Positions 11,203 to 54,029 of a DNA stretch of 64,000 nucleotides are shown piece after piece. The number at the start of each line of letters is the position of its first letter. Within the stretch, counting starts at the first letter, position 1. Under the pieces are notes generated by a model. It was not told the origin of the DNA, searched no databases, and saw nothing but the letters and a program-made list of their open reading frames with translations. The position numbers were made by a program, and so were the translations under genes. Source of the stretch: Gammaproteobacteria bacterium (GTDB lineage Bacteria > Pseudomonadota > Gammaproteobacteria > Eutrophobiales > Eutrophobiaceae); assembly GCA_041600575.1 (NCBI GenBank), contig JBFIJV010000001.1:33-64032 (forward strand), in the 5' to 3' direction.

Positions 11203-11226
11203 GGGTAATTTTGTTACACATATTAA

Positions 11227-11250
11227 CCGCTTTGGGCGGTATTTTTTTTG
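11227..11250 (+). terminator. Rho-independent terminator
   Basis: ACCGC-tttg-GGCGGT followed by T9. Confidence 0.6.
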
Positions 11251-17392: not shown

Positions 17393-17616
17393 GTGCTTTA
17401 TGTAGAGCAACAGGAGGCAGGGTTCCGCTTTCTGTTATCTCTTCAACAACAGAGGGCAGACTTTGCGCCTCACTTACTTATGATCTTGGTGGCAGCAGTG
17501 GCGGGACAGGAAAGTCAAAGAAATACCTAAAATTACAGCGCAACCTCCAAATTGAAGAACGCGACATACAAGAAATAACAACAATACTTATTGCATCAGG
17601 AATCCTAGACGAATGA
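17389..17616 (+). CDS. Small hypothetical protein (75 aa)
   Basis: Coupled ORF. Confidence 0.35.
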   Translation: MSALCRATGGRVPLSVISSTTEGRLCASLTYDLGGSSGGTGKSKKYLKLQRNLQIEERDIQEITTILIASGILDE

Positions 17617-33066: not shown

Positions 33067-33130
33067 AACGAATACCTCTCTGGTTACATGGAACGTATTT
33101 ATTTCCTCTTTAAAGTCACTACAAAGCGAA

Positions 33131-33177
33131 ATTGACAACCGAAAAATAAAAGCGTAGCTTTCGGCCTGTCAATATAA
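33131..33177. promoter_or_regulatory. Divergent cI/cro switch: back-to-back promoters embedded in a long inverted repeat (operator)
   Basis: TTGACAACCGAAA ...15 nt... TTTCGGCCTGTCAA. Each arm supplies a TTGACA -35 for one direction. Rightward -10 is TAGCTT and leftward -10 is TTATTT. Confidence 0.5.
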
Positions 33178-33412: not shown

Positions 33413-33494
33413 CTTGTACACAAAGGGTAGACCCGAAGGTGGTCTTTGTCAAGGTTAGGTTGCATAGGATAGGGGGATATAGGTGGTAGAGGAC

Positions 33495-36760: not shown

Positions 36761-36914
36761 TGATACGTCTGACTGTTCTTGCTATTGCTTGTTACGTTAT
36801 CTGGTTCTTGATTGTTCCATCAATTCTCATTTTACTCATAATCAGTTTTTGGACTGGTGGGTTGGCGATGGTGATGGAATCGATTGAGAAAAAAATAAGA
36901 GAGGTGAAGAAATG
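36760..36914 (+). CDS. Small hydrophobic membrane peptide (51 aa). Not in the ORF track
   Basis: TAATG coupling to the upstream gene and ATGA coupling to ruvC. Two TM-like segments. Confidence 0.35.
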
Positions 36915-37379
36915 AATATACTTGCGCTCGACCCGGCAACGCATTGTGGGTGGGCACATACTTGTGGTGCGTCAGGCGACTGGGACTTAAGTGTTCGCCG
37001 TGACGAATCCGGAGGTATGCGACTCATTCGACTTAATTCGAAGTTAAAAGAAATACACGAATCATTTGGTATCAGCCTGTTGGTGTATGAAGCAGCAAGA
37101 CACGCCATGCCCAAGATGCAAGGTGCGTTAGTGGTTCAATCCGAGTTACAGGGTTGTATCAAGTTGTTCTGTGAAACCAACGGTGTTGAATATCGTGGCT
37201 ACTCACCATCTGAAATCAAAAAGTTTGCAACAGGTAAAGGCAACGCCAATAAGAAGTTAATGGTTCAAGCTGCGCACGAACGATTTGGCAACGTGTCGTC
37301 AGATAATGAAGCTGATGCATTGTGGTTACTGGAGTTGGCCAAAAAGGAGTACGCGAAAGATGAACTACAAGAAAATTAA
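36912..37379 (+). CDS. RuvC-family Holliday junction resolvase
   Basis: 'ILALDPATHCGWA' (Asp 1), 'YEAA', 'SPSEIKKFATGKGNANKKLM', 'NEADALWL' (last acidic residue). Matches the phage RuvC-like fold. Confidence 0.7.
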   Translation: MNILALDPATHCGWAHTCGASGDWDLSVRRDESGGMRLIRLNSKLKEIHESFGISLLVYEAARHAMPKMQGALVVQSELQGCIKLFCETNGVEYRGYSPSEIKKFATGKGNANKKLMVQAAHERFGNVSSDNEADALWLLELAKKEYAKDELQEN

Positions 37380-37392
37380 TTAGAGGCTAACT

Positions 37393-37950
37393 ATGAATCC
37401 AGAAAAAGCACTCAGCAGATTGACAGCAAAGACCGGCGGCCTTGATGTGAATGTGCGTTCAACTGACAACACGTCTCTCAGTGGTTCAGATATTGCGTAC
37501 GCCTTGGGCGGTCTTAACCAGTTTGAGTCAAATTTAATATTGTATAAGTATGCGCAGGCTGATGATTCGTTATATGCCAGGCTGTTGCCCGACTGGTACG
37601 AACGTGTGCGTGTTGCGTGTTTGCGCGAGGGCTGGGGTAAGCATAGGAAAATACCTGACAACAGGTTGGTGTTACTTGCTCAAGCAACACTGGATGAATT
37701 TGTGGGTGATAGTCTTTGCAGGAAATGCAATGGAATTGGATCTGTAAGAACCTTAGATAAGATAGAGGTGTGTAGGACATGTGAAGGGAATCGAATACAG
37801 GCGTGGTCGTCTGCGCGTAGAGCGCGAAGTTGTGCAATGGATAGCCATAACTTTCGCAAGCTATGGAAGACACGTTACCGTTCGACGCTTGGCCGTCTAA
37901 TCAATATAGAACAGTACGCGTTATCGGAGGTTAAAAGGAGGCTGGGTTAA
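37393..37950 (+). CDS. Zinc-finger protein. Possible Q-like late antiterminator
   Basis: CRKC-x15-CRTC zinc ribbon in the C-terminal half. Position matches lambdoid Q except for the inserted minus-strand block. Confidence 0.3.
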   Translation: MNPEKALSRLTAKTGGLDVNVRSTDNTSLSGSDIAYALGGLNQFESNLILYKYAQADDSLYARLLPDWYERVRVACLREGWGKHRKIPDNRLVLLAQATLDEFVGDSLCRKCNGIGSVRTLDKIEVCRTCEGNRIQAWSSARRARSCAMDSHNFRKLWKTRYRSTLGRLINIEQYALSEVKRRLG

Positions 37951-38119
37951 CAGGTTGTCAGTTGGTTGCACATTAAAAATATGAACCCTAGAAGATACTT
38001 TTTGATACTTACCGCACGTGACAATAAGTTGGGACAGGGTGGTCATCACTCCACAGCACCACAACCTTCCGAGGAAGACTTTTTTATGCTCTCAAGAATG
38101 AGCCTGTCCCGATTTAATT

Positions 38120-38668
38120 TTACCATATAATTTCAGTGGGTGAGTCATCGCCTTTGCTGGCTTTTAGTTTGTCCGTGACCATACGTGCAACGTCTTGATT
38201 AATTTTATCCATTGCAACAGCTTTGTCAGTGCAATAGAACTCATGCGTAAAGTCGTCACCATCTTTGCGTACACCCTTGTATACTTGCGAAGTCAAGTAA
38301 GTATCTCGCTCAATCGAGACATGAAATACATCAAGCAACAACAGCTCGTGGTGTGTTGACTTAAACACGGTCTTAAAATCCAGAGCTGCCGACATATAAT
38401 TACGGTACATCGTGGGAATTATCCTGCAATACTGCGTTCCAAATAAAGCACCAACACGAACCAATATCTTTCTATGCTTCACGTCTTTTGTGATGCAGTA
38501 TTCTTGCCCGAATCTTACGGGCGAGAACTCAACTGTAAACAAAGCACAACGTGTATTTAAATAATCTTCAAGACGCTGCGTGAAGTCTTTACCGATTCGG
38601 TCGTCACCGCTTCCCAAATAATGCTCCCACTTAGTGGACTCAGACCATCTGGGCTTGTCCAGTCTCAT
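38120..38668 (-). CDS. Hypothetical protein (182 aa). Start placed at the Met preceded by the conserved box
   Basis: Conserved hairpin, box and RBS sit before ATG 38668. The ORF-track start at 38752 would include the regulatory box in its coding region. Confidence 0.5.
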   Translation of the reverse strand: MRLDKPRWSESTKWEHYLGSGDDRIGKDFTQRLEDYLNTRCALFTVEFSPVRFGQEYCITKDVKHRKILVRVGALFGTQYCRIIPTMYRNYMSAALDFKTVFKSTHHELLLLDVFHVSIERDTYLTSQVYKGVRKDGDDFTHEFYCTDKAVAMDKINQDVARMVTDKLKASKGDDSPTEIIW

Positions 38669-38674
38669 AATAAT

Positions 38675-38723
38675 ATCTCCTCTGTTGGTTGTATGATGTA
38701 ATGGGTAACTTAAATACCCATTA
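38675..38723 (-). promoter_or_regulatory. Conserved box plus hairpin, copy 1
   Basis: Minus strand reads hairpin(TAATGGGTA...TACCCATTA)-CATCATACAACCAACAGAGGAGATattattATG. Confidence 0.5.
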
Positions 38724-38758
38724 GGATTGACTCTCTTTCGAGAGCCAATCACTAATGA

Positions 38759-39289
38759 CTACTCAGCTTTTAATTTAGCCAGTAACTTCAAGGTAGGTTT
38801 GCGACACGTCTTACCTTGTGCCGTTCGTGTGTCAACACGTTCCTGTAAGTATGCGATAACCGCTTGCTTACCCACGAAACCCTCGTCAAGCATTTCTTCC
38901 AACCGCTTCGCAGATAGGCCAACGCCCAACTCCACTTCGTCACGCTTAACGTCTTCGCTTGATTTGCTGACAACAGGTTGCTCTGTCTTTTCGATTGCTA
39001 GTTCCATTGTACTAATCTCCTCTTTTGGTTGTGATTGATGTTCGACTGACTGTAACAGTTTGATTGCGCCTTGGGTAATTCCATTGCGCTCACCAACTGA
39101 CAACAGACTGTCAATTGCTTTCCTTAATGGGTAGTCAAGTGGTTTGCAATTGCGGTATTCTGCAATTGGAATCTTCTTGATTGCCACATCAGGATTGACG
39201 ACAACTAAACGTACGAACTTGTGCCCCTTAAAGGCGACACATGTTCGTATGCCATCGTTGAAGTGATAACGACACACTTCGGCTTGCAT
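38759..39289 (-). CDS. Hypothetical protein (176 aa). The in-frame internal start at 39007 carries its own conserved box, so there may be two products
   Basis: The TAATG-like overlap with the upstream gene supports the long form. The full box and RBS before Met 39007 support a nested 82-aa C-terminal product. Confidence 0.45.
   Translation of the reverse strand: MQAEVCRYHFNDGIRTCVAFKGHKFVRLVVVNPDVAIKKIPIAEYRNCKPLDYPLRKAIDSLLSVGERNGITQGAIKLLQSVEHQSQPKEEISTMELAIEKTEQPVVSKSSEDVKRDEVELGVGLSAKRLEEMLDEGFVGKQAVIAYLQERVDTRTAQGKTCRKPTLKLLAKLKAE
39013..39040 (-). promoter_or_regulatory. Conserved box copy 2, internal to ORF 38759-39289
   Basis: CATCAATCACAACCAAAAGAGGAGATtagtacaATG, in frame. Confidence 0.45.
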
Positions 39290-39290
39290 A

Positions 39291-40061
39291 TTACTTGCCT
39301 CCCATGAGTCTAGCAGTTACGTGCTTGGTCGCTGATTTCTTAAATGATGCTTTCAGACCACGCATAGTTTTGCTGCATACAACGTAACGATTAGTGCCAC
39401 CATTGCCGAATATCTTGGCATACACTTTTTCAACGTTATAAGATCTCCCATCACCGGGAATGAGTAACGCTAAGTGAAAATGGTTGTCATCAAGTTTCTT
39501 GCCGCTTACCACAACACGTTGTCCGTTCTTGTATTCAACGCTCAGACCACGCAATTGCTCTTTAAGTTTATGCAAGTTAAAGGTGATGCTTATTCCTTCC
39601 TCGCTAAAACGCACATCATCAATAGACTTGACCGACTGCACATAATTTCCACGATTAATGCATCGGGCAATGATACGGCCAAGGTTATCAACTTCCTTGC
39701 CATAACCGGACTCATCACCCCATTCAGCCTCATAAATAGCATGAGCGTTGCGGCTAATCTTGGCCAAGTATCTGTACATAGTATTTCCCATAAACCGGGG
39801 GAATATATGTTTTCTTCCTCTTGGCTTGCGTGACTCAAGCAAAATACGCGCCCTTCTGGTAATCGCTAAATCATGTAGCGTTGTAATTACACTCCATATC
39901 GACTCTGAATTACAATCCGGTCTGCCACCACGAGACTTCGTTTCATCGAAGTAAGCGATGTAAGTTTCTGGACTGTAATCGTAAGCCGCTTTCAGTAACG
40001 ACTTAGGTAGCGTATTAGCTGCCGGGTTAATAACCATGTCTATAACTTCTGCTCTTTCCAT
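39291..40061 (-). CDS. Protein with a HUH-like 'HFHLAL' motif and downstream Tyr. Possible rolling-circle Rep or relaxase-like nuclease
   Basis: 'NHFHLALLIPG' fits the HUHUUU pattern, followed by 'EKVYAKIF'. Conserved box before ATG 40061. Confidence 0.35.
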   Translation of the reverse strand: MERAEVIDMVINPAANTLPKSLLKAAYDYSPETYIAYFDETKSRGGRPDCNSESIWSVITTLHDLAITRRARILLESRKPRGRKHIFPRFMGNTMYRYLAKISRNAHAIYEAEWGDESGYGKEVDNLGRIIARCINRGNYVQSVKSIDDVRFSEEGISITFNLHKLKEQLRGLSVEYKNGQRVVVSGKKLDDNHFHLALLIPGDGRSYNVEKVYAKIFGNGGTNRYVVCSKTMRGLKASFKKSATKHVTARLMGGK

Positions 40062-40065
40062 AACA

Positions 40066-40152
40066 TAATCTCCTCTGTATTGGTTGTGGATTGTTTGGCG
40101 GTAGAGTACCCACCACACAACGTACTGTGATGTTCGTAGAACTCACATCACA
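40066..40152 (-). promoter_or_regulatory. Conserved box plus hairpin, copy 3
   Basis: hairpin(GTGATGT..ACATCAC)...CAAACAATCCACAACCAATACAGAGGAGATtatgttATG. Confidence 0.5.
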
Positions 40153-40172
40153 ATACGTTGTAGGGTTTGCAC

Positions 40173-40367
40173 TTATGAAAATTCATACTCAGGGTGATTG
40201 ACCTCGACCTTGTAACCAAGGCTCCGGATATGCCCCAGCGCATCTTTTGTGAGCGTCTTCGTGTTAGTTAATCGAGCAAAGACAAACGCATCTTTGTTAT
40301 CGGGGTAAAATCTTGCTTCACCATAAGTGTATTTGACTGTGACCTTGACTGTCATTTCGTTATTCAT
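40173..40367 (-). CDS. Small hypothetical protein (64 aa)
   Basis: Conserved box and hairpin immediately upstream. Confidence 0.45.
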   Translation of the reverse strand: MNNEMTVKVTVKYTYGEARFYPDNKDAFVFARLTNTKTLTKDALGHIRSLGYKVEVNHPEYEFS

Positions 40368-40371
40368 AACG

Positions 40372-40417
40372 TAATCTCCTCATAATAGGTTGGTGGATGT
40401 TGGTAGTAATACCTACC
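40372..40417 (-). promoter_or_regulatory. Conserved box plus hairpin, copy 4
   Basis: hairpin(GGTAG..CTACC)-CAACATCCACCAACCTATTATGAGGAGATtacgttATG. Confidence 0.5.
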
Positions 40418-40462
40418 AGTGAGAGGACTCTTGCGAATCCCCTCTAGCTAGGTACTAGCTTG

Positions 40463-41731
40463 TTACATGTCTACCATGTCGTGAGCATGGATGACTTCAC
40501 CAATATCTGGTGAACCTTGTGGCAACGACTTGTCACCACATGACAACCACACCACCGGATAGTCCGGCACTGTCGAAGGTATGTCATTGCTAGAAACGTA
40601 CAGGTCAGTGATATAGATAAAACAATCAGGCCGAATACCCTTCTTGGCAACATATTCAAACGCCGGTTTCAAACAAGTACCGCCTCGACCACTATACTTA
40701 AAGGTCAAGTCTTCGCCTTGTTCGAACTCGTGAACACAGTCCTCGTTAACATCACCATAATCGTTATAAATAACGGTTATTTTCCGAGGTCGTGTATCGT
40801 CTGCGATGGCCTGTATTTCGGAGGCAGATTGCTGCAACTGCTCGTCAGATACTGAACCACTGGTGTCAACTGCCAGAACTAATTCCCCTGTTTCTTCACC
40901 ATCTGGTGAAGGTAGGAGAACGTCGTCCAGTGAGTTACGGCGATTGAACCGTCTATATGACCAGTCGTCACGTGCTGGCTGCATGAAGTCACGCAGCAGG
41001 CTTCGCCAGTCCTGTTGAGGTTTCAATAGCTCGTCAATTTCTCCAGTGATACCACCTTTGCTATTGCCGGATAAACGTTCAGCCATATCAGCTTGACGAA
41101 TGTCAAGGTCATCAACTGCTTGGACTGGAACGTTACCGTTCAAGTCTTTAGTACCTACGACCTTGCCAGATTTCGGCTTGTCACCGTCGGCAATCTTAGG
41201 AGCGTCTATTACGCCACCGCAACCGCCGGGGTCGCCACCATCTGACAATCCGTTGTCACCAGATTGACTATTGTCACCTCCGCCTTCACTCTCACCTTCA
41301 CCCTCACCCTCACCTTTCGGTGGTTTTTCCATGTGGATGATTTTGTATATGTCCTCAACGGACATACCGCTGAATTTAGGTTCAAGCATGGCGCTAGCTG
41401 GTAAAGCACAACCCGATTTCTTACAAATCGGATTGATTGCGTAGTCACATGCCACGTTCCAATCATGTGGATCACGTTCGCCACGTCTAAGCGTATGCTT
41501 AAATGCTACGTGGGCAATTTCATGAGCCAACACACCAGCAAATTCATCAACCGGTAAATTTGAAACAAATTCACGGTTGTAATAAATCTTTACGCCATCG
41601 GTTGCACATGTATCAAAATCATTACGTTCTACCAAAGGTAGTTTCATAATGAGCGAACCAAAAAACGGCTGGCCTGTCATGAGTCGAATTCGAGCACGTT
41701 CTATATGCTTTTTTAACTCTGAATCATTCAT
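40463..41731 (-). CDS. Zincin metallopeptidase-like plus von Willebrand A (vWA, MIDAS) protein. Partner of the MoxR ATPase
   Basis: 'LAHEIAHVAFKH' HExxH. Gly/Asp/Glu-rich linker. 'LVLAVDTSGSV' DxSxS MIDAS. Start set at the Met preceded by the conserved box. Confidence 0.65.
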   Translation of the reverse strand: MNDSELKKHIERARIRLMTGQPFFGSLIMKLPLVERNDFDTCATDGVKIYYNREFVSNLPVDEFAGVLAHEIAHVAFKHTLRRGERDPHDWNVACDYAINPICKKSGCALPASAMLEPKFSGMSVEDIYKIIHMEKPPKGEGEGEGESEGGGDNSQSGDNGLSDGGDPGGCGGVIDAPKIADGDKPKSGKVVGTKDLNGNVPVQAVDDLDIRQADMAERLSGNSKGGITGEIDELLKPQQDWRSLLRDFMQPARDDWSYRRFNRRNSLDDVLLPSPDGEETGELVLAVDTSGSVSDEQLQQSASEIQAIADDTRPRKITVIYNDYGDVNEDCVHEFEQGEDLTFKYSGRGGTCLKPAFEYVAKKGIRPDCFIYITDLYVSSNDIPSTVPDYPVVWLSCGDKSLPQGSPDIGEVIHAHDMVDM

Positions 41732-41737
41732 TTTGTA

Positions 41738-41782
41738 AATCTCCTCTATGTTGGTCTGTGGATGGTGGTAGAAAATATCTAC
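41738..41782 (-). promoter_or_regulatory. Conserved box plus hairpin, copy 5
   Basis: hairpin(GGTAGATATTTTCTACC)-ACCATCCACAGACCAACATAGAGGAGATttacaaaATG. Confidence 0.5.
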
Positions 41783-41886
41783 CAACATGCTGTCGGGATT
41801 AACTGACAACATGTTGCTAAATACTCGCATTAAAAAGTTGGGGAGAGTACGCAGTCCTAAGACTACGCACCCTCCACCACAGGTGG

Positions 41887-42738
41887 TTACGACTTGATAC
41901 CCAGTTGCTTATCAATATCAGCCAATAATGCTTTAGCATCATTAGCTGCCTCGATTCTGCGTTCTGGATAATTTCGTAATTCGCTTGCTGTACGGCTACC
42001 GATTGACTCCATCAATCGTTTTGCCATATCGTTAAGCAATGGGTCGTTGTTGATATTCAACAAAGGCAGGATTTCAGCCAGTTCCTTGATATTCCCTATA
42101 AGTGAATCTCTAAAAATTGACTCAACGTCCTGCAGTTTATCAACTGCATGACTGACAGCTTTATGTAGACGCTGCCATACCTCGGCCAATGCTGCAGTTT
42201 CTGCAGATTTCACCTTCGACTCAACGCTATCAGCTATTGCTGATATTTCATCGTCATTCAGTGAAACACGAAAGTCACCGCCATCAGGCACTGGCAATAA
42301 TTCAACGTTGAAGTTGAATTTACTGGCAACATCTTGTGGGTAGTCTGCATCTTTATACAGACCGCCTAAGATGCGCTGAGCCATTGACTTCAATTCAGGA
42401 TATTTAGTAATGAAATTACTAACAGCCGAATCAAACTCATATTGCCATTTCCTCATACCGTCCCGGTATGCCTCGAATCCCACAATAGGCAATATTCTTT
42501 GCCCATTGTTGTCCCAAGGCAGTGTGTGCTCATAATGAAAATCACGAACCTGATTGACTACCTGACCGATACGACGAAAGTCGTCACCCTGAATGAGTAG
42601 CTTGTTGAATTTACCAACGTCACCAGTTGCAGAGTTGCTAACAGCAACCTGTTGTGTCGCTTTCTTATCGTATTTACGAGCTGTCCATTGACTAATGGAT
42701 AGCTGAACAAGCATTGCTTTCTCGTTTAATTTTGACAT
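41887..42738 (-). CDS. Hypothetical protein (283 aa) between the MoxR and vWA genes
   Basis: Conserved box and hairpin upstream. Confidence 0.5.
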   Translation of the reverse strand: MSKLNEKAMLVQLSISQWTARKYDKKATQQVAVSNSATGDVGKFNKLLIQGDDFRRIGQVVNQVRDFHYEHTLPWDNNGQRILPIVGFEAYRDGMRKWQYEFDSAVSNFITKYPELKSMAQRILGGLYKDADYPQDVASKFNFNVELLPVPDGGDFRVSLNDDEISAIADSVESKVKSAETAALAEVWQRLHKAVSHAVDKLQDVESIFRDSLIGNIKELAEILPLLNINNDPLLNDMAKRLMESIGSRTASELRNYPERRIEAANDAKALLADIDKQLGIKS

Positions 42739-42742
42739 GTCA

Positions 42743-42791
42743 AAATCTCCTCTATGTTGGTTTGTGGATGGTGATGTATTGAAAATACATC
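42743..42791 (-). promoter_or_regulatory. Conserved box plus hairpin, copy 6
   Basis: hairpin(GATGTATTttcaAATACATC)-ACCATCCACAAACCAACATAGAGGAGATtttgacATG. Confidence 0.5.
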
Positions 42792-42836
42792 GGGCTGCCC
42801 ACTACCTAAGTAGTGAGCAGTATCGATATATTCTCG

Positions 42837-43892
42837 CTAGAGAATTACGTCTTGATTTTCTACACACCAATTGACGTATGCTGTGGACTTAACAAAGTCC
42901 TCATACTGTCCGTTAGCCTTTTGTTTATCGGTCATTGTCTGGACTGAAAACACTTCGAACTCTTTGTCCAATCTTTTCAGGTACTGAATAAATTGGCTGA
43001 AATTGTTCTTGTCAGCGACATTAGCAATAGCTCCAGCTATTGCGTAAAGTGCTCCCATGCTGCCGTCGTCTTCTGGAATCTGAGCACCATTCGGGTCTCT
43101 CGCAATTTCATCGACATTTGGCAGCTTGCCCCAGAGACTAAGAAAAGCAGTTAAATTAACTGCTTGTTCTTCACCGACGCACCCCGATAAAGCCAAGAAT
43201 TGGTCTTTATCATCGTAGCCAAGTCCAAGCTCAGTCCCTGCATAATCCCAGTTTCTGGGATTAGGGTTGACCTTGGCAGACCTGTCGAATTGGCAAAAAG
43301 CAGGACTATTGAAGCGTAAATACGCTACAATCTGTGTTGGTATGTTGTGCTGAATAGCCCAAACACACCAACGGTCTAAGTCAGCATTGACTTCGACCTC
43401 TGATAGTCGATCAGACATTGCATTTAATGTCTTCTCGACACCAGAACCATGCTCGATGCCATTCGTTGCTAAGACAACGAACGTATCTTCTGGTAATCGG
43501 TAGTGACTACCGATACCTCGTTCATTGCTATTACCTAATTGCATTAGCACCTTTTGCATCCCTCGATTGGCCTGACCAAATTCATCTATGAAAAGAATTT
43601 GCCTTGGCTTGCTTGGTAGGATTGCGTTAGCAACCATGTCCACCGTTTTGTTGTCCCTGTCGTAGACAGGTAAAGCAAAATCGGTAGCCTCGTGCTGACT
43701 CGGACGAATCGTAATCACTTCGTCGTAGTGTTTAGAAACACTAGGAAGCGAATCAATCATCGCCGTTTTGCCGACACCCGGTTGCCCTTTCATGACAATC
43801 GTTTTTGCCCAACGCTTCGTCTGGTTGTAACTGTCCATACGAGCACCAAGAAAAGCAGGCATGTCATATATTGATTTAATTATCTGTTGCAT
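42837..43892 (-). CDS. MoxR-family AAA+ ATPase
   Basis: Walker A 'GQPGVGKT' and Walker B 'ILFIDEF'. First gene of the block, behind the conserved box. Confidence 0.7.
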   Translation of the reverse strand: MQQIIKSIYDMPAFLGARMDSYNQTKRWAKTIVMKGQPGVGKTAMIDSLPSVSKHYDEVITIRPSQHEATDFALPVYDRDNKTVDMVANAILPSKPRQILFIDEFGQANRGMQKVLMQLGNSNERGIGSHYRLPEDTFVVLATNGIEHGSGVEKTLNAMSDRLSEVEVNADLDRWCVWAIQHNIPTQIVAYLRFNSPAFCQFDRSAKVNPNPRNWDYAGTELGLGYDDKDQFLALSGCVGEEQAVNLTAFLSLWGKLPNVDEIARDPNGAQIPEDDGSMGALYAIAGAIANVADKNNFSQFIQYLKRLDKEFEVFSVQTMTDKQKANGQYEDFVKSTAYVNWCVENQDVIL

Positions 43893-43898
43893 TTGTGT

Positions 43899-43947
43899 AT
43901 CTCCTCATAATAGGTTGGTGGATAGTGCGAAATACGAATGTATTTCA
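43899..43947 (-). promoter_or_regulatory. Conserved box plus hairpin, copy 7
   Basis: hairpin(GAAATACattcGTATTTC)-GCACTATCCACCAACCTATTATGAGGAGATacacaaATG. Confidence 0.5.
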
Positions 43948-44330
43948 GTAAAGGCAAAAGCGAACTTGCGTTCGCCTTCACCTTTGGTGAAACACACTCA
44001 CCACGCCACAAGGAACACAAAGTGTTCCCTGTGACATAACCATTAAGAGGGAGATTATTTGGTGACAGGTTTACGTTCTAATCAGCCTCTAGCTGGACGC
44101 AGATTTGACCTGTCGAACCCCGACTCTACCGTCCTAATTACTAACGGTAGCCGTTACGCTGTGCCGACTCCGCAAACGAGAACTTCGTTCGCCTTATCTT
44201 TCGTGGCACTGAATGCTTCGCAGCAATCAGCAAGCTGAACCAACAGCTAATCAGTCGTCACCAACTCACTGGTTTCACCAGTTTCGGCAATTTCAGCATC
44301 CTGCTGAGCCGAGTTGGAATTGTGTATCTA

Positions 44331-44391
44331 AGTCCTTAATCTTTTTTTTCCCTTTTTCACTTTGTTCAAAAGGAAAAAAAAGTTAAGGACT
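44331..44391. repeat. Long AT-rich palindrome (about 20-bp arms, 20-nt loop)
   Basis: AGTCCTTAATCTTTTTTTTCC ...loop... GGAAAAAAAAGTTAAGGACT. Confidence 0.6.
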
Positions 44392-44488
44392 AATAGGTTG
44401 GGGAATGATAGTGGAGACAAGTTACACTTGTCAAGGTAGACTTGCAGGCCGTTATTCTCGATTGTACCAATCGAAAGTCTGGCAACGC

Positions 44489-44533
44489 GTTTCACGTGAA
44501 ACCCTTGACACACGCGAGTGATTATGGATAATA
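44489..44533 (+). promoter_or_regulatory. Sigma70-like rightward promoter with an abutting perfect 14-bp palindrome. Candidate late promoter
   Basis: GTTTCACGTGAAAC (44489-44502), TTGACA (44505-10), 17 nt, ATAATA (44528-33). Confidence 0.5.
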
Positions 44534-44562
44534 TCAATAATAGTATTGTAGACCTCCTCAAA

Positions 44563-44595
44563 AGCCAGACTGCTAAAGCAGTCAGGCTTTTTTTA
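44563..44595 (+). terminator. Rho-independent terminator 30-60 nt downstream of the candidate late promoter
   Basis: AGCCAGACTGC-taaa-GCAGTCAGGCT followed by T7. Confidence 0.6.
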
Positions 44596-44697
44596 TGCCC
44601 ATCACAAAGTGATGAACAACTGACAACCGGTTGCTCAACGTTCAAGGTCATAGACCTTGTTTGGTGGGACATACGCACAGCGTGCGTTGGTTTTAAA

Positions 44698-44739
44698 AAC
44701 CTATGGTTATTAAAACACTTGAACTTATAACCTATGGTT
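44698..44739. promoter_or_regulatory. Two copies of the palindromic site AACCTATGGTT, 31 bp apart. The second lies within TTATAACCTATGGTTATAA. Operator-like
   Basis: Direct reading. Lies in the leader upstream of the first late gene. Confidence 0.4.
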
Positions 44740-44954
44740 ATAACAGGGCTGGCATAGCATGTCCTGTGCTGTGTATCTCCTTATAAATCAAGGAGATAGG
44801 GTGGTGCGTACTAGGTTCATTGCGTTCGAGAGTGTCTACACACAGCACGTTTTCGTGTATGCAAACGCGCTCTGAGCGCGGGGGCTAACACCACTGTATA
44901 TATAGAACTCACAAAAAATATTTCACAAAATTTTAAACCTTTGTAAAGGAAAAC

Positions 44955-45614
44955 TTGCACATGGCACTATCTCCATCTGACCAGCGACGACTTGTACGAA
45001 AACTGGAAGGACGATCTCGCGCCGAGAAAGAAGCAATCATTGGCGCTACTTACGAAGCGATGAATAAGGGCATAAAAGACCCGATAATCGCTGGTATCAC
45101 CCGGGCTAAAGAAAAGATTGCGATTGCCGCTGGCTCAAGCCCTGATAATGTAAATTACAATGGTATTCAGTACGGTAACGGGGGATGGAATGTCCCGGTT
45201 AATGTGCCGGGGCGAAGAATTTATGCGTCACAATTACCGGCTGTGTTTGGAAATCTTCCACAATTTAAAAATGGATATTTTGACACGCCGGCAAGCACGC
45301 GTACCGCGTTTGTTCCAAAAAGAACTGAGGCTGATGCATGGGTGCACGGACTCAGACAATATGAAGAAGGACTTAAAAATATCGAAGGGCAATTAGTTCA
45401 AGGCAAAGATGATCAATGGAAGTCAGCACAAAAAGAAATACGACTCGCTGACCTGAGAAAAAACAGCCAGGAACTTTTGTTCAATCAAAAGCCTCGCGGC
45501 TTTCAGCCGCAACAAAAAGGCATGTTCTCTCAATTGAATGGCGGCAATAACCCTATCAATCAAATTAGTCAGGGCTTCGATAAGAAGTTCGACATGGCGA
45601 GCAAGTTACGTTAA
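44955..45614 (+). CDS. Hypothetical protein (219 aa), first gene of the late operon
   Basis: ORF. ATG 44961 is an alternative start. Confidence 0.5.
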   Translation: MHMALSPSDQRRLVRKLEGRSRAEKEAIIGATYEAMNKGIKDPIIAGITRAKEKIAIAAGSSPDNVNYNGIQYGNGGWNVPVNVPGRRIYASQLPAVFGNLPQFKNGYFDTPASTRTAFVPKRTEADAWVHGLRQYEEGLKNIEGQLVQGKDDQWKSAQKEIRLADLRKNSQELLFNQKPRGFQPQQKGMFSQLNGGNNPINQISQGFDKKFDMASKLR

Positions 45615-46105
45615 TGGCTTACAAAAAACCAGACGGCAGATCAGGTAAGCCACCCACAGAAAAGCAAAAGCATTTTGCGCGTGAGTTCATCGCTAATGGC
45701 GGCAACGCTACTGAAGCCTTTCGTCAGGCGTACACCGATAAGCACGACGCGAAAACTACGCAAAGAATGGCGTTTAAGGTTAAGCAAAGCGCGGCGATTG
45801 CAGCAGAGATTGACCGGCTACAGAAAAAGATTGACCAAAAGTTCATGATTACAATCGGAAAGATAACGCAGGAACTTGATGAAAACAGGACTCTGGCAAA
45901 AGAACTTGGCAAGCCAGAGGCTATGAATGCAGCAACAATGGGAAAAGCGAAGCTACACGGATTAATCACTGACAAGCGTGAAACAAAACACGGCTTTGCA
46001 GAGGAGTTCGTGGATGCGTTGTTGGGGAACCTTCCGGACACGACTGGCCTGCCCGGCCAGCACAGGCAGTTACCGGAAGACTCTGATGATGAAGTGCTTC
46101 ATTAA
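45614..46105 (+). CDS. terS: Terminase small subunit
   Basis: 'EKQKHFAREFIANGGNATEAFRQAY' is the classic TerS HTH N-terminus. Immediately precedes TerL. Confidence 0.8.
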   Translation: MAYKKPDGRSGKPPTEKQKHFAREFIANGGNATEAFRQAYTDKHDAKTTQRMAFKVKQSAAIAAEIDRLQKKIDQKFMITIGKITQELDENRTLAKELGKPEAMNAATMGKAKLHGLITDKRETKHGFAEEFVDALLGNLPDTTGLPGQHRQLPEDSDDEVLH

Positions 46106-47658
46106 TGGCAGCGACAGTAACTGCACCATCGAAAGTTCTTTCGATAAAAGATCCGAGCGTAATAAAAAAACTGAATCAACAGCGTCGCAATTATGCAAAC
46201 CAAAAATGGCGCTTAAATAATTTATACAAAATAAAAGACAAGGAAGGCCACGTTGTTCAGTTCATTATGAACGAGCAGCAGGAAAATTTATATGACAACC
46301 AATGGTATCTCAATGTAGTTCTTAAAGCGCGTCAGCTAGGGTTTTCTACCTTCATTGATGTGTACATTCTTGATACGTGCTTGTTTAACGACAACATTGA
46401 TGCAGGCATCATCGCTCACCATCTTGACGACGCAAAGACTATCTTCGACGACAAGATTAAGTTTCCGTATGACAGTCTGCCGGAGTGGGTGCGTGGACAA
46501 AAAGAAGCAACAACCGATAGAGCAAACGAGATTGCATTTAGTAATGGTTCCAGAATCCGAGTTAGTACGTCGTTTCGTTCGGGAACGCTGCAAATCCTGC
46601 ATGTCTCTGAGTACGGGAAAATTGCGGCTAAATTTCCGGATAAGGCGCGAGAAATTAAAACTGGTGCATTCGAATCCGTTGCCACCGGGCAAAAGATATT
46701 CGTAGAGTCAACCGCTGAAGGGCGAGACGGCGAATTTTATGAGTTGTGTGTTCGCTCACAAGCGGCCACGAAGTCAAACAAAAAGCTGTCACCGCTAGAC
46801 TTCCGTTTTCACTTCTACCCTTGGTGGAAGAACCCGCTGTACCGTTTAGACCCTGCCGGGGTTGTTATCACACAAGATGACGCAAAGTATTTTGAAAATC
46901 TGGCAGAACGCGGCATCAAGCTGGACGACGGGCAATGCGCGTGGTGGGCAAAAAAATTCCAGACGCTTGGTGTGGACATTTGGAAAGAGCACCCAAGCTA
47001 CCCTGAAGAAGCATTTAAGGCATCTATTGATGGCGCTTACTATGGCACGGTAATGACCGGCCTGCGGCAAAAAGACCGCATAGGCAACGTGCCTTGGGAA
47101 CAAAGTTTCCCGGTACACACTGCTTGGGATTTAGGTATGAACGACGCTATGTCGATTGTCTTTTTTCAGCAAATTGTAAAAGACGTACGCATTATTGATT
47201 TCATCCAAGACCAAGACCGGGGCATCCCTTACTACGCTAAATTGCTCAAGGAGAAGCCGTACAGCTACGGCAATCACTACATGCCTCACGACATTAAGGT
47301 GCGCGATTTATCGACCGATATGGAGCGCAGGATAGACGTGGCGCGTAAGCATGGCATTGTCCCTATCGTGGAAGTGGCCAAGCCGCGAAACAATCAAGAC
47401 TTGATGGATCAAATCGATATGACGCGAAAATTTTTAAGCATGGCGTGGATAGATGAGAGTAATTGCAGTCACGTCATTAAAGCCCTCGAAGCCTATTCGA
47501 AGGAGTGGGACGAAAAGCTAGGGACATTCAAAAGCAATCCAAGACACAACTGGGCATCACACCCTGCTGACGCAGTAAGGTCAGGCGCAGTTGGTTTTAA
47601 ATCGGTGGTCTACGCTGCACAGCAGATGCTGGAACCGCCTCCACTTGAGGATTATTAA
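46105..47658 (+). CDS. terL: Terminase large subunit
   Basis: Deviant Walker A 'LKARQLGFST'. C-terminal RNaseH-like nuclease with 'HTAWDLGMND' first Asp. Confidence 0.8.
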   Translation: MAATVTAPSKVLSIKDPSVIKKLNQQRRNYANQKWRLNNLYKIKDKEGHVVQFIMNEQQENLYDNQWYLNVVLKARQLGFSTFIDVYILDTCLFNDNIDAGIIAHHLDDAKTIFDDKIKFPYDSLPEWVRGQKEATTDRANEIAFSNGSRIRVSTSFRSGTLQILHVSEYGKIAAKFPDKAREIKTGAFESVATGQKIFVESTAEGRDGEFYELCVRSQAATKSNKKLSPLDFRFHFYPWWKNPLYRLDPAGVVITQDDAKYFENLAERGIKLDDGQCAWWAKKFQTLGVDIWKEHPSYPEEAFKASIDGAYYGTVMTGLRQKDRIGNVPWEQSFPVHTAWDLGMNDAMSIVFFQQIVKDVRIIDFIQDQDRGIPYYAKLLKEKPYSYGNHYMPHDIKVRDLSTDMERRIDVARKHGIVPIVEVAKPRNNQDLMDQIDMTRKFLSMAWIDESNCSHVIKALEAYSKEWDEKLGTFKSNPRHNWASHPADAVRSGAVGFKSVVYAAQQMLEPPPLEDY

Positions 47659-47840: not shown

Positions 47841-48278
47841 ATGACTCGTATGAGTTTAGCAAGCGCACCTTCAAAGAAACCGACGGTGATGGAGTATATG
47901 ACAGTGAGTAGTTTAGCTTTGCCCGAATCAGTTACACGTGAGTTAGAAGAGCAACAGGTCAGCTCATTAGCAAAGAATATTATCGAAGTGCTGGACAAGC
48001 ATTATCCGACCTACACCGGGACATGGCACATATTAATTAACACAGATCCAAATGCCGGCGTTGTCCAAGTACGCAACTTGCGCATCAGTGGGACGATGGG
48101 TTTTCAAATTCCTATCACGTGGTTACATGACCATGACACGATGATGAAGTTAATCAAAAACAATGGCGGCGAATTGCTTGAACGTTTCCGTCTTAGTCGT
48201 GAGAGAGGCGCTTCTGTTGAAGACCAATTGAACGATGCTAAACGAAACTTTAAAGGCGAATTAATCCACGATGAGTGA
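47841..48278 (+). CDS. Hypothetical protein (145 aa or shorter)
   Basis: ORF between terL and the portal gene. Confidence 0.4.
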   Translation: MTRMSLASAPSKKPTVMEYMTVSSLALPESVTRELEEQQVSSLAKNIIEVLDKHYPTYTGTWHILINTDPNAGVVQVRNLRISGTMGFQIPITWLHDHDTMMKLIKNNGGELLERFRLSRERGASVEDQLNDAKRNFKGELIHDE

Positions 48279-50541
48279 CAAGTTCCAGTCTGCTGGGCGT
48301 ACCACAAACCAAAACAAGAATGATGAAGAAGTAACCGTCGCGGAAAATAGCGCTCCCGAATTGATGGATGACTTTGCCGACGCAACACTTATCAACGAAG
48401 CTATTAACACCCAGAAGAGCGAAGCTGAAGATAGTGAGTGGTTAGCTTTGGCGCGTGACGCGTATCAATCATCCACTGATTACTTTGATGCAAGCATAAG
48501 GAAAGGCGTTGAGAGGAATCTCGCGCATTTCAATATTCAGCACGCACCGGGTTCGAAATACCATTCTGACTTATACAAATACCGGGCGAAAGGGTTTCGA
48601 CCTAAAACACGTTCAGTCATTCGTCAGAACGAAGCAAAAGCGGCTGTCGCCTTATTCTCAACCAGCGACGTAGCACACGTCAGCGCAGAGAATGATTCAG
48701 ACATGAACATGCAAATGAACGCGGAAATAAACGAGAAGCTATTGCAGTACCGTTTAACAAACACAATGGATTGGTTCCAGACAGCCATTGGCGCGTATCA
48801 GGACGCACTGACAACCGGTGTCTGCTTATCTCACCAGCATTGGGATTACGAGGAAATCGTAGACGAGATAGAGGAAACACAGGAGGGCTTGTTGGGTGCT
48901 GAGCCGGTAATGCGGGAAGTCAGAACTATTGTGCGTGACACTCCAGCAGTTGACTTACGCCCTATTGAAAACTTGCGCTTCAGCCCGTCGGCTGACTGGC
49001 GCGACCCGGTAGGCACATCGCCTTATCTGGTTGATTTAATGCCAATGGAAATTGGCGCGGCCAAGCAAATGATTAAGCAGGGCCAAAAAACAAACATACC
49101 TTGGAAGGAAGATTTAGGCGAAGAAGTTTGGAAGCGCGGCATGACTAACGAATACGATTCAGTTCGTAGTATGCGCGAGAGAAACAAACAGGATTCAAAA
49201 GACCAGCAACATCAAACGTCTGACTTTGATACAGTTTGGATTCATCGCAATATTATTCGCAAAGAAGGTATTGATTATATTTTTTACACGCTGGGTGTTT
49301 ACCAGTTGTTATCAGACCCTATCCCATTAGTTAAAGAGTATGGCTTTCTAAAACTGGGTGAACGTCCTTACAAAATGGGTAAGGCCGTCATTGAGACGCA
49401 CAAGGTCTACCCTGAATCGTTGGCCGGGTTGGGCGCATCGCTACAGCACGAAGCTAACGATATTAATAACCAGCGACGTGACAACGTGCAGTTGGTTCTT
49501 AATCGACGCTACTACGCACGACGCGGCGCACAGATAGACTATCGCAGCCTGGTTAAAAACATTCCCGGCTCTGTTACTGAAATGGATAACATAACGAACG
49601 ATATTCGGAGTGATGCACCACCGGAAATAACCGGTAGCGCGTACCAAGAACAAGACCGGGTGAACATGGACTTTGATGAGTTGATGGGAACCTTCTCAAC
49701 GTCGTCTATCGGAAGTAATCGTCAACTGAATGAAACGGTTGGCGGCATGGAGATGCTGTCTGGCAGCGCTAATGACGTAACGGAATATCAGCTCCGGACT
49801 TTTGTACAAACATGGGTTGAGCCTGTTTTGAAACAGGTGATACAAATGGAGCAGTTCTACGAAACCAATGAAGCTCTGTTGCAGTTGATGGGTGATAAAA
49901 TCAAATCATTGGTGCGGTATAACAAGGGTGAAATAACCGACGCGCAGTTACAAGGCAACATGCTGGTACAAATCAATGTTGGTTTTGGCGCAACGAATCC
50001 GAAGCAAAAAATCGACAAGCTGGCAATGGGTTTGAATTACGTCATGCAAATGCCCGGCATGTCAGCACGCTTGAACAGTGACGAAGTAGGTAAGGAAGTA
50101 TTTGGCGCAATGGGTTATGACACCCACGAACGCTTCTTCCCACAATTAACCGAAGAACAAAAGCAAGCAGCTCAGCAACCACAAGACCCGAAGGTTATGG
50201 TTGAGCAAATGCGTGCACAAGCGAAGATGGCCGAACTCGAAAAACAACATGCAATGGACATGAAGCGCATGGAAGTCGAGGCCGCAATGAAGCTGCGCTC
50301 AATGCAACAGCAAAAAGCTATGTCGGACACAGACCATCAGGTGAAGATGGCATTGGCCGAGATGGACAAGGAAAAAGAAATGATGAATCTTGCTGCACGA
50401 CAGGAAATGTCACTGCAATCCATCAAGGCTCAGTTAGCGCAAAAGGCTATGTCCGAACGCGGCACGAACGAACGTTTCGTGGCCGAGAAAGAGTTCGCGC
50501 AGCAGCAGCCTGATGGAAATGGTTTTAGCAGCAAAACATAA
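48271..50541 (+). CDS. Portal protein (P22-like, with a long C-terminal coiled-coil barrel)
   Basis: 756 aa. Downstream of terL. C-terminal 120 aa is a Met/Gln/Ala/Lys-rich heptad coiled coil. Confidence 0.7.
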   Translation: MSDKFQSAGRTTNQNKNDEEVTVAENSAPELMDDFADATLINEAINTQKSEAEDSEWLALARDAYQSSTDYFDASIRKGVERNLAHFNIQHAPGSKYHSDLYKYRAKGFRPKTRSVIRQNEAKAAVALFSTSDVAHVSAENDSDMNMQMNAEINEKLLQYRLTNTMDWFQTAIGAYQDALTTGVCLSHQHWDYEEIVDEIEETQEGLLGAEPVMREVRTIVRDTPAVDLRPIENLRFSPSADWRDPVGTSPYLVDLMPMEIGAAKQMIKQGQKTNIPWKEDLGEEVWKRGMTNEYDSVRSMRERNKQDSKDQQHQTSDFDTVWIHRNIIRKEGIDYIFYTLGVYQLLSDPIPLVKEYGFLKLGERPYKMGKAVIETHKVYPESLAGLGASLQHEANDINNQRRDNVQLVLNRRYYARRGAQIDYRSLVKNIPGSVTEMDNITNDIRSDAPPEITGSAYQEQDRVNMDFDELMGTFSTSSIGSNRQLNETVGGMEMLSGSANDVTEYQLRTFVQTWVEPVLKQVIQMEQFYETNEALLQLMGDKIKSLVRYNKGEITDAQLQGNMLVQINVGFGATNPKQKIDKLAMGLNYVMQMPGMSARLNSDEVGKEVFGAMGYDTHERFFPQLTEEQKQAAQQPQDPKVMVEQMRAQAKMAELEKQHAMDMKRMEVEAAMKLRSMQQQKAMSDTDHQVKMALAEMDKEKEMMNLAARQEMSLQSIKAQLAQKAMSERGTNERFVAEKEFAQQQPDGNGFSSKT

Positions 50542-52128: not shown

Positions 52129-53076
52129 ATGGCAGGACAAGTTTGGGAAACGAGCGCTGCTGGTGGGTATATGTATAGTGGGGAACTTTCACAAGTCCTT
52201 CGTAATGCACTCCAGCCGATGACTCGATTCGTACAGCATTGTGACGCAGATGATTTCACAGACAAAGGTCTTCACGCAGGTGAAGCCTTTCAGTGGAACA
52301 TTTATAGCGATGTAAGTGCACAAGGTGGGCGTTTAACGGAAAACGTTAGAATGCCTGAAACAAGTTTTACGATCACACAAGGCTCAGGCACTGTGTATGA
52401 GTTTGGTAATTCAGTTCCTTACTCTGGTTTGCTGGATGACCGTTCAGCTCACCCCGTAAAACAAATAATCCATAAGGCGCTTAAGAATGACTGCGTAAAG
52501 GCTTTTGAATCAGAAGCTCACGCTCAGTTTGCAGCAACGCCTTTAACCGTCACACCGGACAGTGGTAGCAGTGCAACAGCGATTGCATTTGAAACCACTG
52601 GCACACCAGCGGCGACAAACGCACTAGCGATGAACAACGTTCACGTTAAGTTGATCTCTGATCAGATGAAGGAACGTAATATTCCTGTCTATGAAGATGG
52701 CAACTATCGTTGTATTGGTCGTCCAAGCACGTTCCGTGATTTTAAAGATGACTTGGAAGCGATACATCAGTATCAAGACCAAGGCTTCAGTTTGATTATC
52801 AACGGTGAAATTGGTCGTTCGTACGAAGGTATTCGTTTCTTCGAGCAGACTGCAATTGCTTCACAGGGTTGGTCTGGTGGTTTATCTGATCAAGCCTTCT
52901 TCTTCGGTAGTGATACCGTTTTGGAAGCTATTGTTGTTCCGCCTGAAATACGCGGAAAACTTCCGGGTGACTTTGGTCGTGACAAGGGCGTTGCATGGTA
53001 TGCGCAAGAAGGTTTTGCATTAGTTCATACCATTGCAGCAGACGCAAGAATCGTTGAATGGGCATCAGCAGCTTAA
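52129..53076 (+). CDS. Major capsid protein (HK97-fold)
   Basis: 315 aa. Position after the scaffold. GAGG RBS. Confidence 0.65.
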   Translation: MAGQVWETSAAGGYMYSGELSQVLRNALQPMTRFVQHCDADDFTDKGLHAGEAFQWNIYSDVSAQGGRLTENVRMPETSFTITQGSGTVYEFGNSVPYSGLLDDRSAHPVKQIIHKALKNDCVKAFESEAHAQFAATPLTVTPDSGSSATAIAFETTGTPAATNALAMNNVHVKLISDQMKERNIPVYEDGNYRCIGRPSTFRDFKDDLEAIHQYQDQGFSLIINGEIGRSYEGIRFFEQTAIASQGWSGGLSDQAFFFGSDTVLEAIVVPPEIRGKLPGDFGRDKGVAWYAQEGFALVHTIAADARIVEWASAA

Positions 53077-53660: not shown

Positions 53661-54029
53661 ATGAAGGGTGGGACAGAAATGTCCTGCCCTTTTTTTATGA
53701 TTGAAAAATGCCCAATCTGCAAAGTCAATAACCGCGCCTCTAACGGGCACGGCGCAAGGAAGGCACTATGCAATTCTTGCACACGGAAACCTTACACTAG
53801 ACACAAGAAAGAATACTGCGAGGAATGCAGCTTCGTAGCAAAGCACCGGGTTCAGCTTGATGTTGACCATGTTGATGGCAACAAGAAAAACAATGACCTA
53901 TCAAATTTAAAAACTCTCTGCGCTAACTGCCACAGACTTAAAACTCTGGAGAGTGGCGACGCATGGAATATCGGCCATAAGAAACATTTCGAAGATACGA
54001 AAATAACTTACATCGGAGAAGATGAATGA
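53661..54029 (+). CDS. HNH endonuclease
   Basis: CPIC...C..C zinc knuckle. 'DVDHVDGNKKNN...LCANCH' is the HNH core. Confidence 0.75.
   Translation: MKGGTEMSCPFFMIEKCPICKVNNRASNGHGARKALCNSCTRKPYTRHKKEYCEECSFVAKHRVQLDVDHVDGNKKNNDLSNLKTLCANCHRLKTLESGDAWNIGHKKHFEDTKITYIGEDE

Follow-up and report, generated by a model that had tools for sequence, protein, structure and literature searches.

The DNA considered here, which we call the window, is a 64,000-nucleotide stretch comprising nearly the entire 64,069-bp contig JBFIJV010000001.1, and its gene layout is that of a temperate, lambdoid-style phage of about 64 kb. The element in question lies in a 1,068-bp gap (43893-44960) that separates two divergent gene sets, a six-gene leftward module on the minus strand (38120-43892) and the late genes, which begin on the plus strand at 44961. 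Within this gap, at 44505-44594, a strong sigma-70 promoter and an intrinsic terminator stand one behind the other at the head of the late genes. On the far side of the leftward module lies the early rightward operon, which includes on the plus strand a primase (33483-35810) and a RuvC-like resolvase (36912-37379) and ends, directly after the resolvase, with the gene for a 185-amino-acid Q-like antiterminator (37393-37950). An earlier sequence-only reading of this DNA had described the promoter and terminator as a late control unit resembling PR'/tR' of phage lambda, and the description is supported by the homology of the Q-like protein, by the conservation of promoter and terminator and by the late genes downstream. 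From sequence and comparison we think it likely that 44505-44594 is a late promoter with its promoter-proximal terminator, placed under antitermination control of the Q-lambda type.

Protein searches of a large metagenomic collection recovered one related lineage for the control region, represented by the European Nucleotide Archive (ENA) contigs L017, L038 and L039, two of them from crustacean metagenome samples. These contigs are nearly identical to each other in the control region, and the comparison is effectively one between two independent lineages. Gene order is the same in all three, that of the late genes being seen in L017 and L038, and amino acid identity to the window is 86% for TerL (the L038 copy), 69% for the ATPase of the leftward module, 65% for TerS and 36% for the first late protein. 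The intergenic regions of the window and L017 align end to end, and on this alignment the stretch of 36% identity between the late promoter and a divergent promoter to its left lies at about the neutral level and serves as a built-in control.

The rightward late promoter, P_right, carries the -35 hexamer TTGACA at 44505-44510 on the plus strand, identical in L017, and a -10 region at 44527-44534 on the same strand in which GATAAT overlaps TAATAT. It can be parsed in two ways: a 16-nt spacer leads to GATAAT (44527-44532), which matches the sigma-70 consensus at 11 of 12 positions, and an 18-nt spacer leads to TAATAT (44529-44534), which matches at 10 of 12. The register proposed earlier, TTGACA with a 17-nt spacer and ATAATA, was wrong, since ATAATA matches TATAAT at one position of six. 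At the aligned -10 L017 has TATTCT, behind a 17-nt spacer. Only two sites in the 64 kb reach 11 of 12, the one at 44505 (plus strand) and one at 44434 (minus strand), and they stand back to back, 70 bp apart; shuffled sequence yields 1.6 such sites per 64 kb. Promoter and terminator together are more than chance provides. Between the terminator and the first late gene there is no other plus-strand promoter-like site of at least 9 of 12. From the usual spacing, transcription from P_right is predicted to start at 44539-44542.

Adjoining the -35, the spacer block CACGCGAG (44511-44518, plus strand) is 100% identical in the second lineage and occurs only once in the window. C44504, the -35 and this block make up CTTGACACACGCGAG (44504-44518), identical at all 15 positions in the L017 lineage, the flanks in that alignment being 36% identical just upstream and 60% just downstream. 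Because the Q-binding site of lambda also sits in the promoter spacer, the asymmetric CACGCGAG, conserved in the same place, is the natural candidate for a Q-binding element here. Just past the predicted start, at about +2 to +7, lies the -10-like hexamer TAGTAT (44541-44546, plus strand), which agrees at four of six positions, A2 and T6 among them, and could be a sigma-dependent pause element, possibly the pause signal; the sequence TCnAnAATAG around it is common to the window and L017. Two open reading frames (ORFs) that overlap the unit, at 44518-44730 on the plus strand and 44328-44678 on the minus strand, are not kept in L017 and were ruled out as genes.

The intrinsic terminator, which is tR'-like, occupies 44560-44594 on the plus strand between the promoter and the late genes, with its hairpin at 44560-44591 and a U7 tail at 44588-44594. 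The stem has 13 pairs and one A.A mismatch (AAAAGCC/GGCUUUU and GACUGC/GCAGUC, with a UAAA loop), nine of the pairs forming a G+C-rich core, and the hairpin energy of -18.3 kcal/mol corresponds to a z of -5.6 against dinucleotide shuffles. In L017 the terminator (44560-44595 in the window) is 83% identical, with the same UAAA loop and U7 tail; one C-G pair is replaced by U-A through compensatory change, the internal mismatch has moved by one position, and the hairpin reaches -15 kcal/mol. The T run ends 60-62 bp beyond the last base of the -10, the 5' arm of the hairpin begins at about +21, and the terminated RNA would be 51-56 nt long given a start at 44539-44542. The sequence-only reading had placed a terminator with an 11-bp stem and seven T within about 60 nt of the promoter and the first late gene some 360 bp beyond it; the stem was a fair approximation, and the spacings agree with those measured, the first late ATG at 44961 lying 366 bp past the terminator. 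Promoter core and terminator are conserved while the neighbouring 36% stretch is not, which argues that selection has kept these two elements, and not the palindrome upstream of the promoter or the body of the short RNA.

The Q-like protein has a CxxC...CxxC zinc ribbon at C109/C112/C127/C130, and PHROG 127, "anti-termination protein Q-like", matches its C-terminal part with an E value of 1.2e-7. Pfam, NCBIfam and PADLOC contain no match to it, tblastn against 50,697 GenBank phage records gave no match, and searches of IMG/VR with the Q alignment returned nothing useful. An exhaustive HMMER search of metagenomic collections recovered 356 homologues of about 180 amino acids. A profile of 98 homologues matches lambda Q (PDB 7UBM_Q) over residues 11-200 with an E value of 8.4e-12, hhalign against lambda Q gives 97% probability, and the four zinc-ribbon cysteines are invariant in all 98; Pfam PF03589 matches six of these 98 relatives and not the Q-like protein itself. 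An AlphaFold2 (AF2) model built on the homologue alignment has a mean predicted local distance difference test score (pLDDT) of 94.6, and the top five Foldseek matches in the PDB are all Q-lambda, the best being 7UBN_Q from the NusA-containing loading complex (TMq 0.74, probability 1.00). The homology takes in both a helical body with a helix-turn-helix and a zinc-ribbon arm. Because profile, hhalign, predicted fold and invariant cysteines agree, the 185-amino-acid protein is a genuine, full-length and very divergent member of the Q-lambda fold family, and the clade of about 356 proteins is by sequence an unannotated branch of that family. The sequence-only reading had suggested that a zinc-finger Q-like gene at 37393 fits late control of this kind, and the suggestion is supported by the profile, by hhalign, by the predicted fold and by the position of the gene at the end of the early operon.

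The late genes all lie on the plus strand. The first (44961-45614) encodes a 217-amino-acid protein without assigned function, for which PADLOC and NCBIfam give no match and which holds the same place in L017 and L038. It is followed by the small terminase (45614-46105), the large terminase (46105-47658), the portal (48271-50541), the major head protein (52129-53076) and tail-fibre-like proteins (57513-58313 and 245-979). This run extends from 44961 to the end of the window and then from position 1 to about 23423, about 42 kb in all. Within it, intrinsic terminators lie on the plus strand at 53663-53692 (13 pairs), 11226-11240 and 1707-1725, and there are fewer promoter-like sites than in shuffled sequence (12 against 25.2, and 23 against 33.1). 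Processive antiterminators serve long operons of just this kind, with terminators inside and few promoters.

The classical Q cassette consists of the Q gene, the promoter, a pause element, the terminator and the late genes; Q binds at the promoter and loads onto the paused polymerase, which becomes terminator-resistant for thousands of base pairs (PMC9388147). The 13-bp site of Q-lambda is asymmetric, contains no repeat and is bound by a monomer, and from an RNA length of 15-16 nt onwards the 5' end passes through the Q torus (PMC9388147). Applied to the window, this model would have host sigma-70 RNA polymerase start near 44540 at the near-consensus promoter, probably constitutively, and, without help, halt at the U7 hairpin about 55 nt further on, releasing a short RNA. 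Upon induction the early rightward operon, running from the primase to the resolvase and then Q, would supply the Q-like protein, which would act in trans from 6.5 kb away, binding promoter DNA most plausibly at CACGCGAG and loading onto polymerase held just past the start, possibly at TAGTAT. The Q-loaded polymerase would then resist the U7 terminator, a weaker hairpin at 44673 and terminators within the late operon such as that at 53663, and the terminase, head and tail genes would be expressed. We infer that the 55-nt unit is compatible with Q loading, given that the 5' arm of the hairpin begins at about +21 and threading occurs at 15-16 nt.

Compared with the Q/PR'/tR' system of lambda and its 6S RNA, the window has a Q that is homologous by fold and profile and whose gene likewise closes the early right operon; its late genes are preceded by a strong sigma-70 promoter and then an intrinsic terminator, and a -10-like hexamer lies just past the predicted start. 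The lambda late promoter, as we read it, is TTGACT-17-TAAATT, followed by AACGAT. The two Q proteins share about 20-23% identity. In lambda the Q stop codon lies 44 bp from the -35, whereas here the distance from the stop (37950) to the -35 (44505) is 6,555 bp, with six minus-strand genes and a leader of about 500 nt in between. The terminated RNA would be about 55 nt here against 194 nt in lambda, and where lambda has lysis genes after the unit, the window has a conserved leader of 366 bp and then the terminase genes. The arrangement is most likely an ordinary mechanism, a lambda PR'/tR'-like cassette, in an unusual layout, which differs from that of lambda in the 6.5-kb separation of Q across an inverted six-gene module, in the very short RNA and in the conserved leader.

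Other systems share parts of this logic. In Shiga-toxin phages the PR'-tR' pair is likewise a constitutive late promoter whose transcripts are terminated at once in lysogeny, giving a short by-product RNA, and one such RNA, StxS, is processed to 74 nt, is bound by Hfq and acts as a regulator whose targets have been mapped (PMC7547250); here neither a target nor a conserved seed was found in the neighbouring leaders of the two lineages. The Q21 and Q82 cassettes have the same order of promoter Q site, sigma-dependent pause, terminator and late genes (PMC9388147). Q proteins form three families, however, and Q21 has no structural homology to Q-lambda and, as a dimer, binds a direct repeat (PMC9388147; the structural evidence concerns Q21 and not Q82), whereas among these families the protein of the window matches Q-lambda only in Foldseek. 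AlpA of Pseudomonas aeruginosa is also a small DNA-binding antiterminator, which loads at an element within a promoter and lets a downstream intrinsic terminator be bypassed (PMC9371919). It controls a cell-death operon and not phage late genes, and its fold match to the Q-like protein is weak (7XYB_G, E 2.1, TMq 0.40).

Several observations weigh against Q-dependent antitermination at this site. The Q gene does not adjoin its presumed target, and in the L017 lineage Q was found on a separate short contig that is linked to the control region only by a shared sample. The candidate Q site is drawn from two lineages only. The pause candidate TAGTAT agrees at only four of six positions, and its aligned counterpart in L017, TAGACA, at three of six and without the key T6. 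In contrast to lambda there are no lysis genes after the unit. A conserved block in the leader, CTGTATATATAGAAC, could be a different kind of late promoter. A PR'-like unit directly after Q was considered and rejected, the only feature there being a weak hairpin with a T run at 38069-38087. The order in which convergent genes follow Q is found elsewhere as well: a 72%-identical Q lies on the short contig L041, of the L017 lineage, from a sample that also holds L039, and a 65%-identical homologue lies on L042 and L043. On L041 and on L042/L043 the resolvase and Q genes precede a set of convergent genes on the minus strand that have their homologues at 38120-38920 of the window. Because this order recurs in two other lineages, the separation of Q from the late promoter by a leftward module appears to go back to their common ancestor and not to be a chance feature of this one genome.

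The unit could also be seen as a stand-alone small RNA (sRNA) gene, its RNA of about 55 nt acting in trans and the late genes being transcribed from elsewhere. Bacterial sRNA genes typically consist of a strong promoter and an Hfq-type 3' end, as with the hairpin and U7 here, and the short RNA of the window carries CCUCCUC, complementary to Shine-Dalgarno sequences. CCUCC is absent in L017, however, and the 5' single-stranded part of the RNA is 52% identical between the lineages. Against the leftward and rightward leaders, shuffled RNA forms duplexes as good as the best ones of the short RNA (fraction at or below the observed, 0.14-0.35), and the latter fall at non-homologous places in the two lineages, so that neither the conserved seed nor the targets of a trans-acting Hfq-type sRNA were found in these leaders. 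The idea that the short RNA regulates the leftward ATPase gene by anti-Shine-Dalgarno pairing was rejected on the same grounds, the motif being absent in L017 and the duplex energy like that of shuffled sequence. An sRNA gene would also leave unexplained why the unit should stand exactly where the late operon begins, in a phage with a Q homologue of its own. A milder version would make the RNA both a by-product of Q control and a regulator, like StxS, and by-product RNAs of PR'-tR' can turn into functional sRNAs (PMC7547250). We consider an sRNA explanation unlikely.

Control might instead be exerted at initiation, by a dimeric activator or repressor bound to the perfect 14-bp palindrome GTTTCACGTGAAAC (44489-44502), the terminator then being a leaky attenuator or an insulator. 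The dyad ends 2 bp upstream of the -35 and spans about -52 to -39 of P_right, and the late promoter of L017 carries a different and far stronger dyad, ATGTCTATTCT-CC-AGAATAGACAT, which makes lineage-specific operators plausible. The sequence-only reading had noted the palindrome abutting the promoter and offered it as a possible activator site. The palindrome is indeed perfect and 2 bp from the -35, but it is not conserved, lying in the least conserved intergenic stretch (the 69 bp between the promoters, 36% identical to L017), and it is no rarer than chance, with six perfect 14-bp palindromes in the window against 3.9 +/- 2.0 in shuffles. It is present in a single copy, with no similar sequence elsewhere in the window. 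The idea of an activator site falls on these counts and because a near-consensus promoter, with a consensus -35 and a -10 matching at five of six positions, needs no activator; activator-dependent late promoters of the P2 Ogr or Mu C style combine a weak -35 with a conserved dyad, and here a consensus TTGACA accompanies an unconserved one. A dyad centred near -45.5 also lies outside the usual positions of class I and class II activators. Nor is the palindrome likely to be the Q site, since Q-lambda binds a non-repeat site as a monomer, and GTTTCACGTGAAAC was set aside in both roles as unconserved, at chance level and of the wrong symmetry for Q-lambda. Even with a repressor bound, the conserved strong terminator would still call for an antiterminator, which makes such control an added layer and not a replacement. 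Initiation control as the main mechanism is very unlikely, and GTTTCACGTGAAAC is probably not part of the Q mechanism and a lineage-specific operator at most. It is equally improbable that the late genes are transcribed from a promoter of another type within the leader, such as CTGTATATATAGAAC, with P_right and its terminator serving an unrelated role. In favour of such a promoter, CTGTATATATAGAAC is an invariant, AT-rich block of 15 nt (44894-44908, plus strand), followed by AAAAAATATTT and placed 53 nt before the first late ATG, and the leader as a whole is far more conserved than neutral sequence. Yet it has neither a -35 nor a -10 bearing the key T, and thus no sigma-70 features; it was also discarded as a repeated late-promoter motif, being single-copy in the genome even with three mismatches allowed. 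Scans of the proteins with PHROGs, Pfam and NCBIfam, which are not exhaustive and leave many genes unannotated, show no phage sigma factor or late activator, and the leader blocks could equally be a packaging or terminase-binding site beside the terminase genes.

If Q-dependent antitermination at this unit is confirmed, Q-lambda-type control would extend to a phage lineage whose relatives are known only from metagenome assemblies, several of them crustacean-associated. It would also imply that Q can act without adjoining its target and that loading needs no more than 20 nt of RNA before the terminator hairpin. The Q clade is missed by current family models, and late-gene control in many uncultured phages may go unannotated as a result. 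The back-to-back near-consensus promoters and compact terminator would offer a ready test bed for a divergent Q.

By sequence searches the phage has no close relative among GenBank phages, plasmids, IMG/VR, GTDB genomes or JGI metagenomes. The region has no match in the 50,697 phage records by megablast or blastn, nor in plasmids by blastn, and locus searches based on TerL in IMG/VR and GTDB reached 49% identity at best, with no syntenic locus. Exact DNA patterns from the conserved blocks had no match in GTDB, and the leader block had none in IMG/VR. CTTGACACACGCGAG has 19 matches in IMG/VR, and blastn of the 1,068-nt region shows no similarity beyond 19-21 nt in any of them; two further patterns gave only chance matches there (L044-L046), and a scan of JGI metagenomes gave a single match, L037, a chance match inside a high-GC gene. 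For recognising further relatives, AGATTTGACCTGTCGAACCCCGACTCTACC and CTTGACACACGCGAG could serve as k-mer tags. Elsewhere in the genome lie an integrase (23862-24791, minus strand) and a CI-like repressor (32428-33138, minus strand). No transfer RNA or transfer-messenger RNA gene was found, and Rfam at gathering and permissive thresholds returned only noise.

The late operon ends with a protein of 1,936 amino acids (17613-23423), whose C-terminal 860 residues match giant phage proteins of PHROG 14770 (E 5e-175) without assigned function. The strong late-strand terminator with a 13-pair stem and T run (53663-53701) lies just 3' of the head-protein genes, and the start of an HNH-endonuclease-like ORF (53661-54029) overlaps it.

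From the terminator to the first late gene runs a non-coding leader of 365 nt (44596-44960, plus strand), which is 64% identical to L017, contains blocks at 100% and may be a packaging site, a leader RNA or an alternative promoter. Besides CTGTATATATAGAAC, the invariant blocks are GTTATTAAAACACTTGAAC (44706-44724, plus strand) and CGTTCGAGAGTGTCTA (about 44823-44838, plus strand). The weaker second terminator-like hairpin (44673-44697, plus strand) consists of ACGCACAGCGTGCGT followed by UGGUUUUAAAAA; the same motif recurs in L017, as ACGCACAGTGTGTGCGTTGTTTTA, at 5345-5368, but on the opposite side of the conserved GTTATTAAAACACTTGAAC. A 13-bp direct repeat, AACCTATGGTTAT, is found at 44698-44710 and 44729-44741. 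Several leader hairpins of 6-8 bp, for example at 44600 and 44643, have stems that differ between the lineages. Another, at 44866-44880, holds CGCTCT (CGCTCTTC in L017, at about 5461-5480), which resembles the boxA core of N/Nus-type antitermination and may be a coincidence.

Leftward transcription has its own promoter, P_left (44405-44434, minus strand), with the sequence TTGACA-18-TATCAT and a match of 11 of 12; in L017 it reads TTGACA-17-TATGCT. The leader RNA that would follow it (43893-44397, minus strand; about 470-500 nt) ends at the ribosome-binding site of a MoxR-like AAA ATPase gene (42837-43892, minus strand), the first of the leftward module, and has its L017 counterpart at 4473-4982 on the minus strand. 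Its minimum free energy (MFE) is -199.6 kcal/mol, with z between -8.8 and -11.8, and that of the L017 homologue is -199.4 kcal/mol, with z -9.5. The two-lineage consensus fold has 139 pairs, of which 27 show compensatory double changes and none is broken, against one compensatory pair in controls with the partner moved by 1-3 columns; folding is more stable on the minus strand than on the plus strand (-150 vs -126 kcal/mol). Invariant blocks within this RNA reach about 60 nt. In the MFE fold of each lineage, the Shine-Dalgarno sequence of the gene that comes first downstream is paired with one such block, AAUCUCCCUC; the two-lineage consensus fold lacks this helix. No Rfam family matches the structured leader, which is a candidate new riboregulator and the more novel object of the region; it is a neighbour of the Q unit and not part of it. 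A more speculative and rather doubtful proposal would make the 1.07 kb of intergenic DNA a single bidirectional control hub, in which the distant Q acts on the cassette of about 55 nt, the short RNA is perhaps itself a regulator, the RNA of about 470 nt gates the MoxR-ATPase/VWA-metallopeptidase operon through an invariant anti-Shine-Dalgarno block, and lineage-specific operators between the two promoters couple them.

The listed contents of the leftward module are the AAA ATPase, a 283-amino-acid protein, a DUF2201_N+DUF2201 VWA/metallopeptidase protein (40463-41830, minus strand) and four proteins without a family. PADLOC and NCBIfam give no match within 38120-43892, and the gene order of the module is kept in the related lineages.

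Further dyads lie around the two promoters. The palindrome GACAAGTTACACTTGTC (44416-44432), a 7-3-7 arrangement of GACAAGT-TAC-ACTTGTC, covers the -35 and spacer of P_left. Between the promoters, at 44458-44474, lies another 7-3-7 palindrome, TCGATTG-TAC-CAATCGA, which shares the TAC centre. Each of the two occurs once in the genome, and L017 carries other dyads at the corresponding positions, so they are probably lineage-specific operators. The L017 dyad ATGTCTATTCT-CC-AGAATAGACAT is a perfect 11-2-11 palindrome at 5102-5125; it overlies the -10 and the predicted start site of the L017 late promoter, where the window keeps only a 5-bp remnant, and suggests repressor control of that promoter in the L017 lineage. 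Lineage-specific operators at the late promoter are thus possible, but would not belong to the conserved core of the mechanism. The whole of 43893-44960 is strongly enriched for perfect inverted repeats whose arms are separated by 3 nt: twelve of them have 6-bp arms and five have 7-bp arms, the expectation for the latter being about 0.07 in 1 kb.

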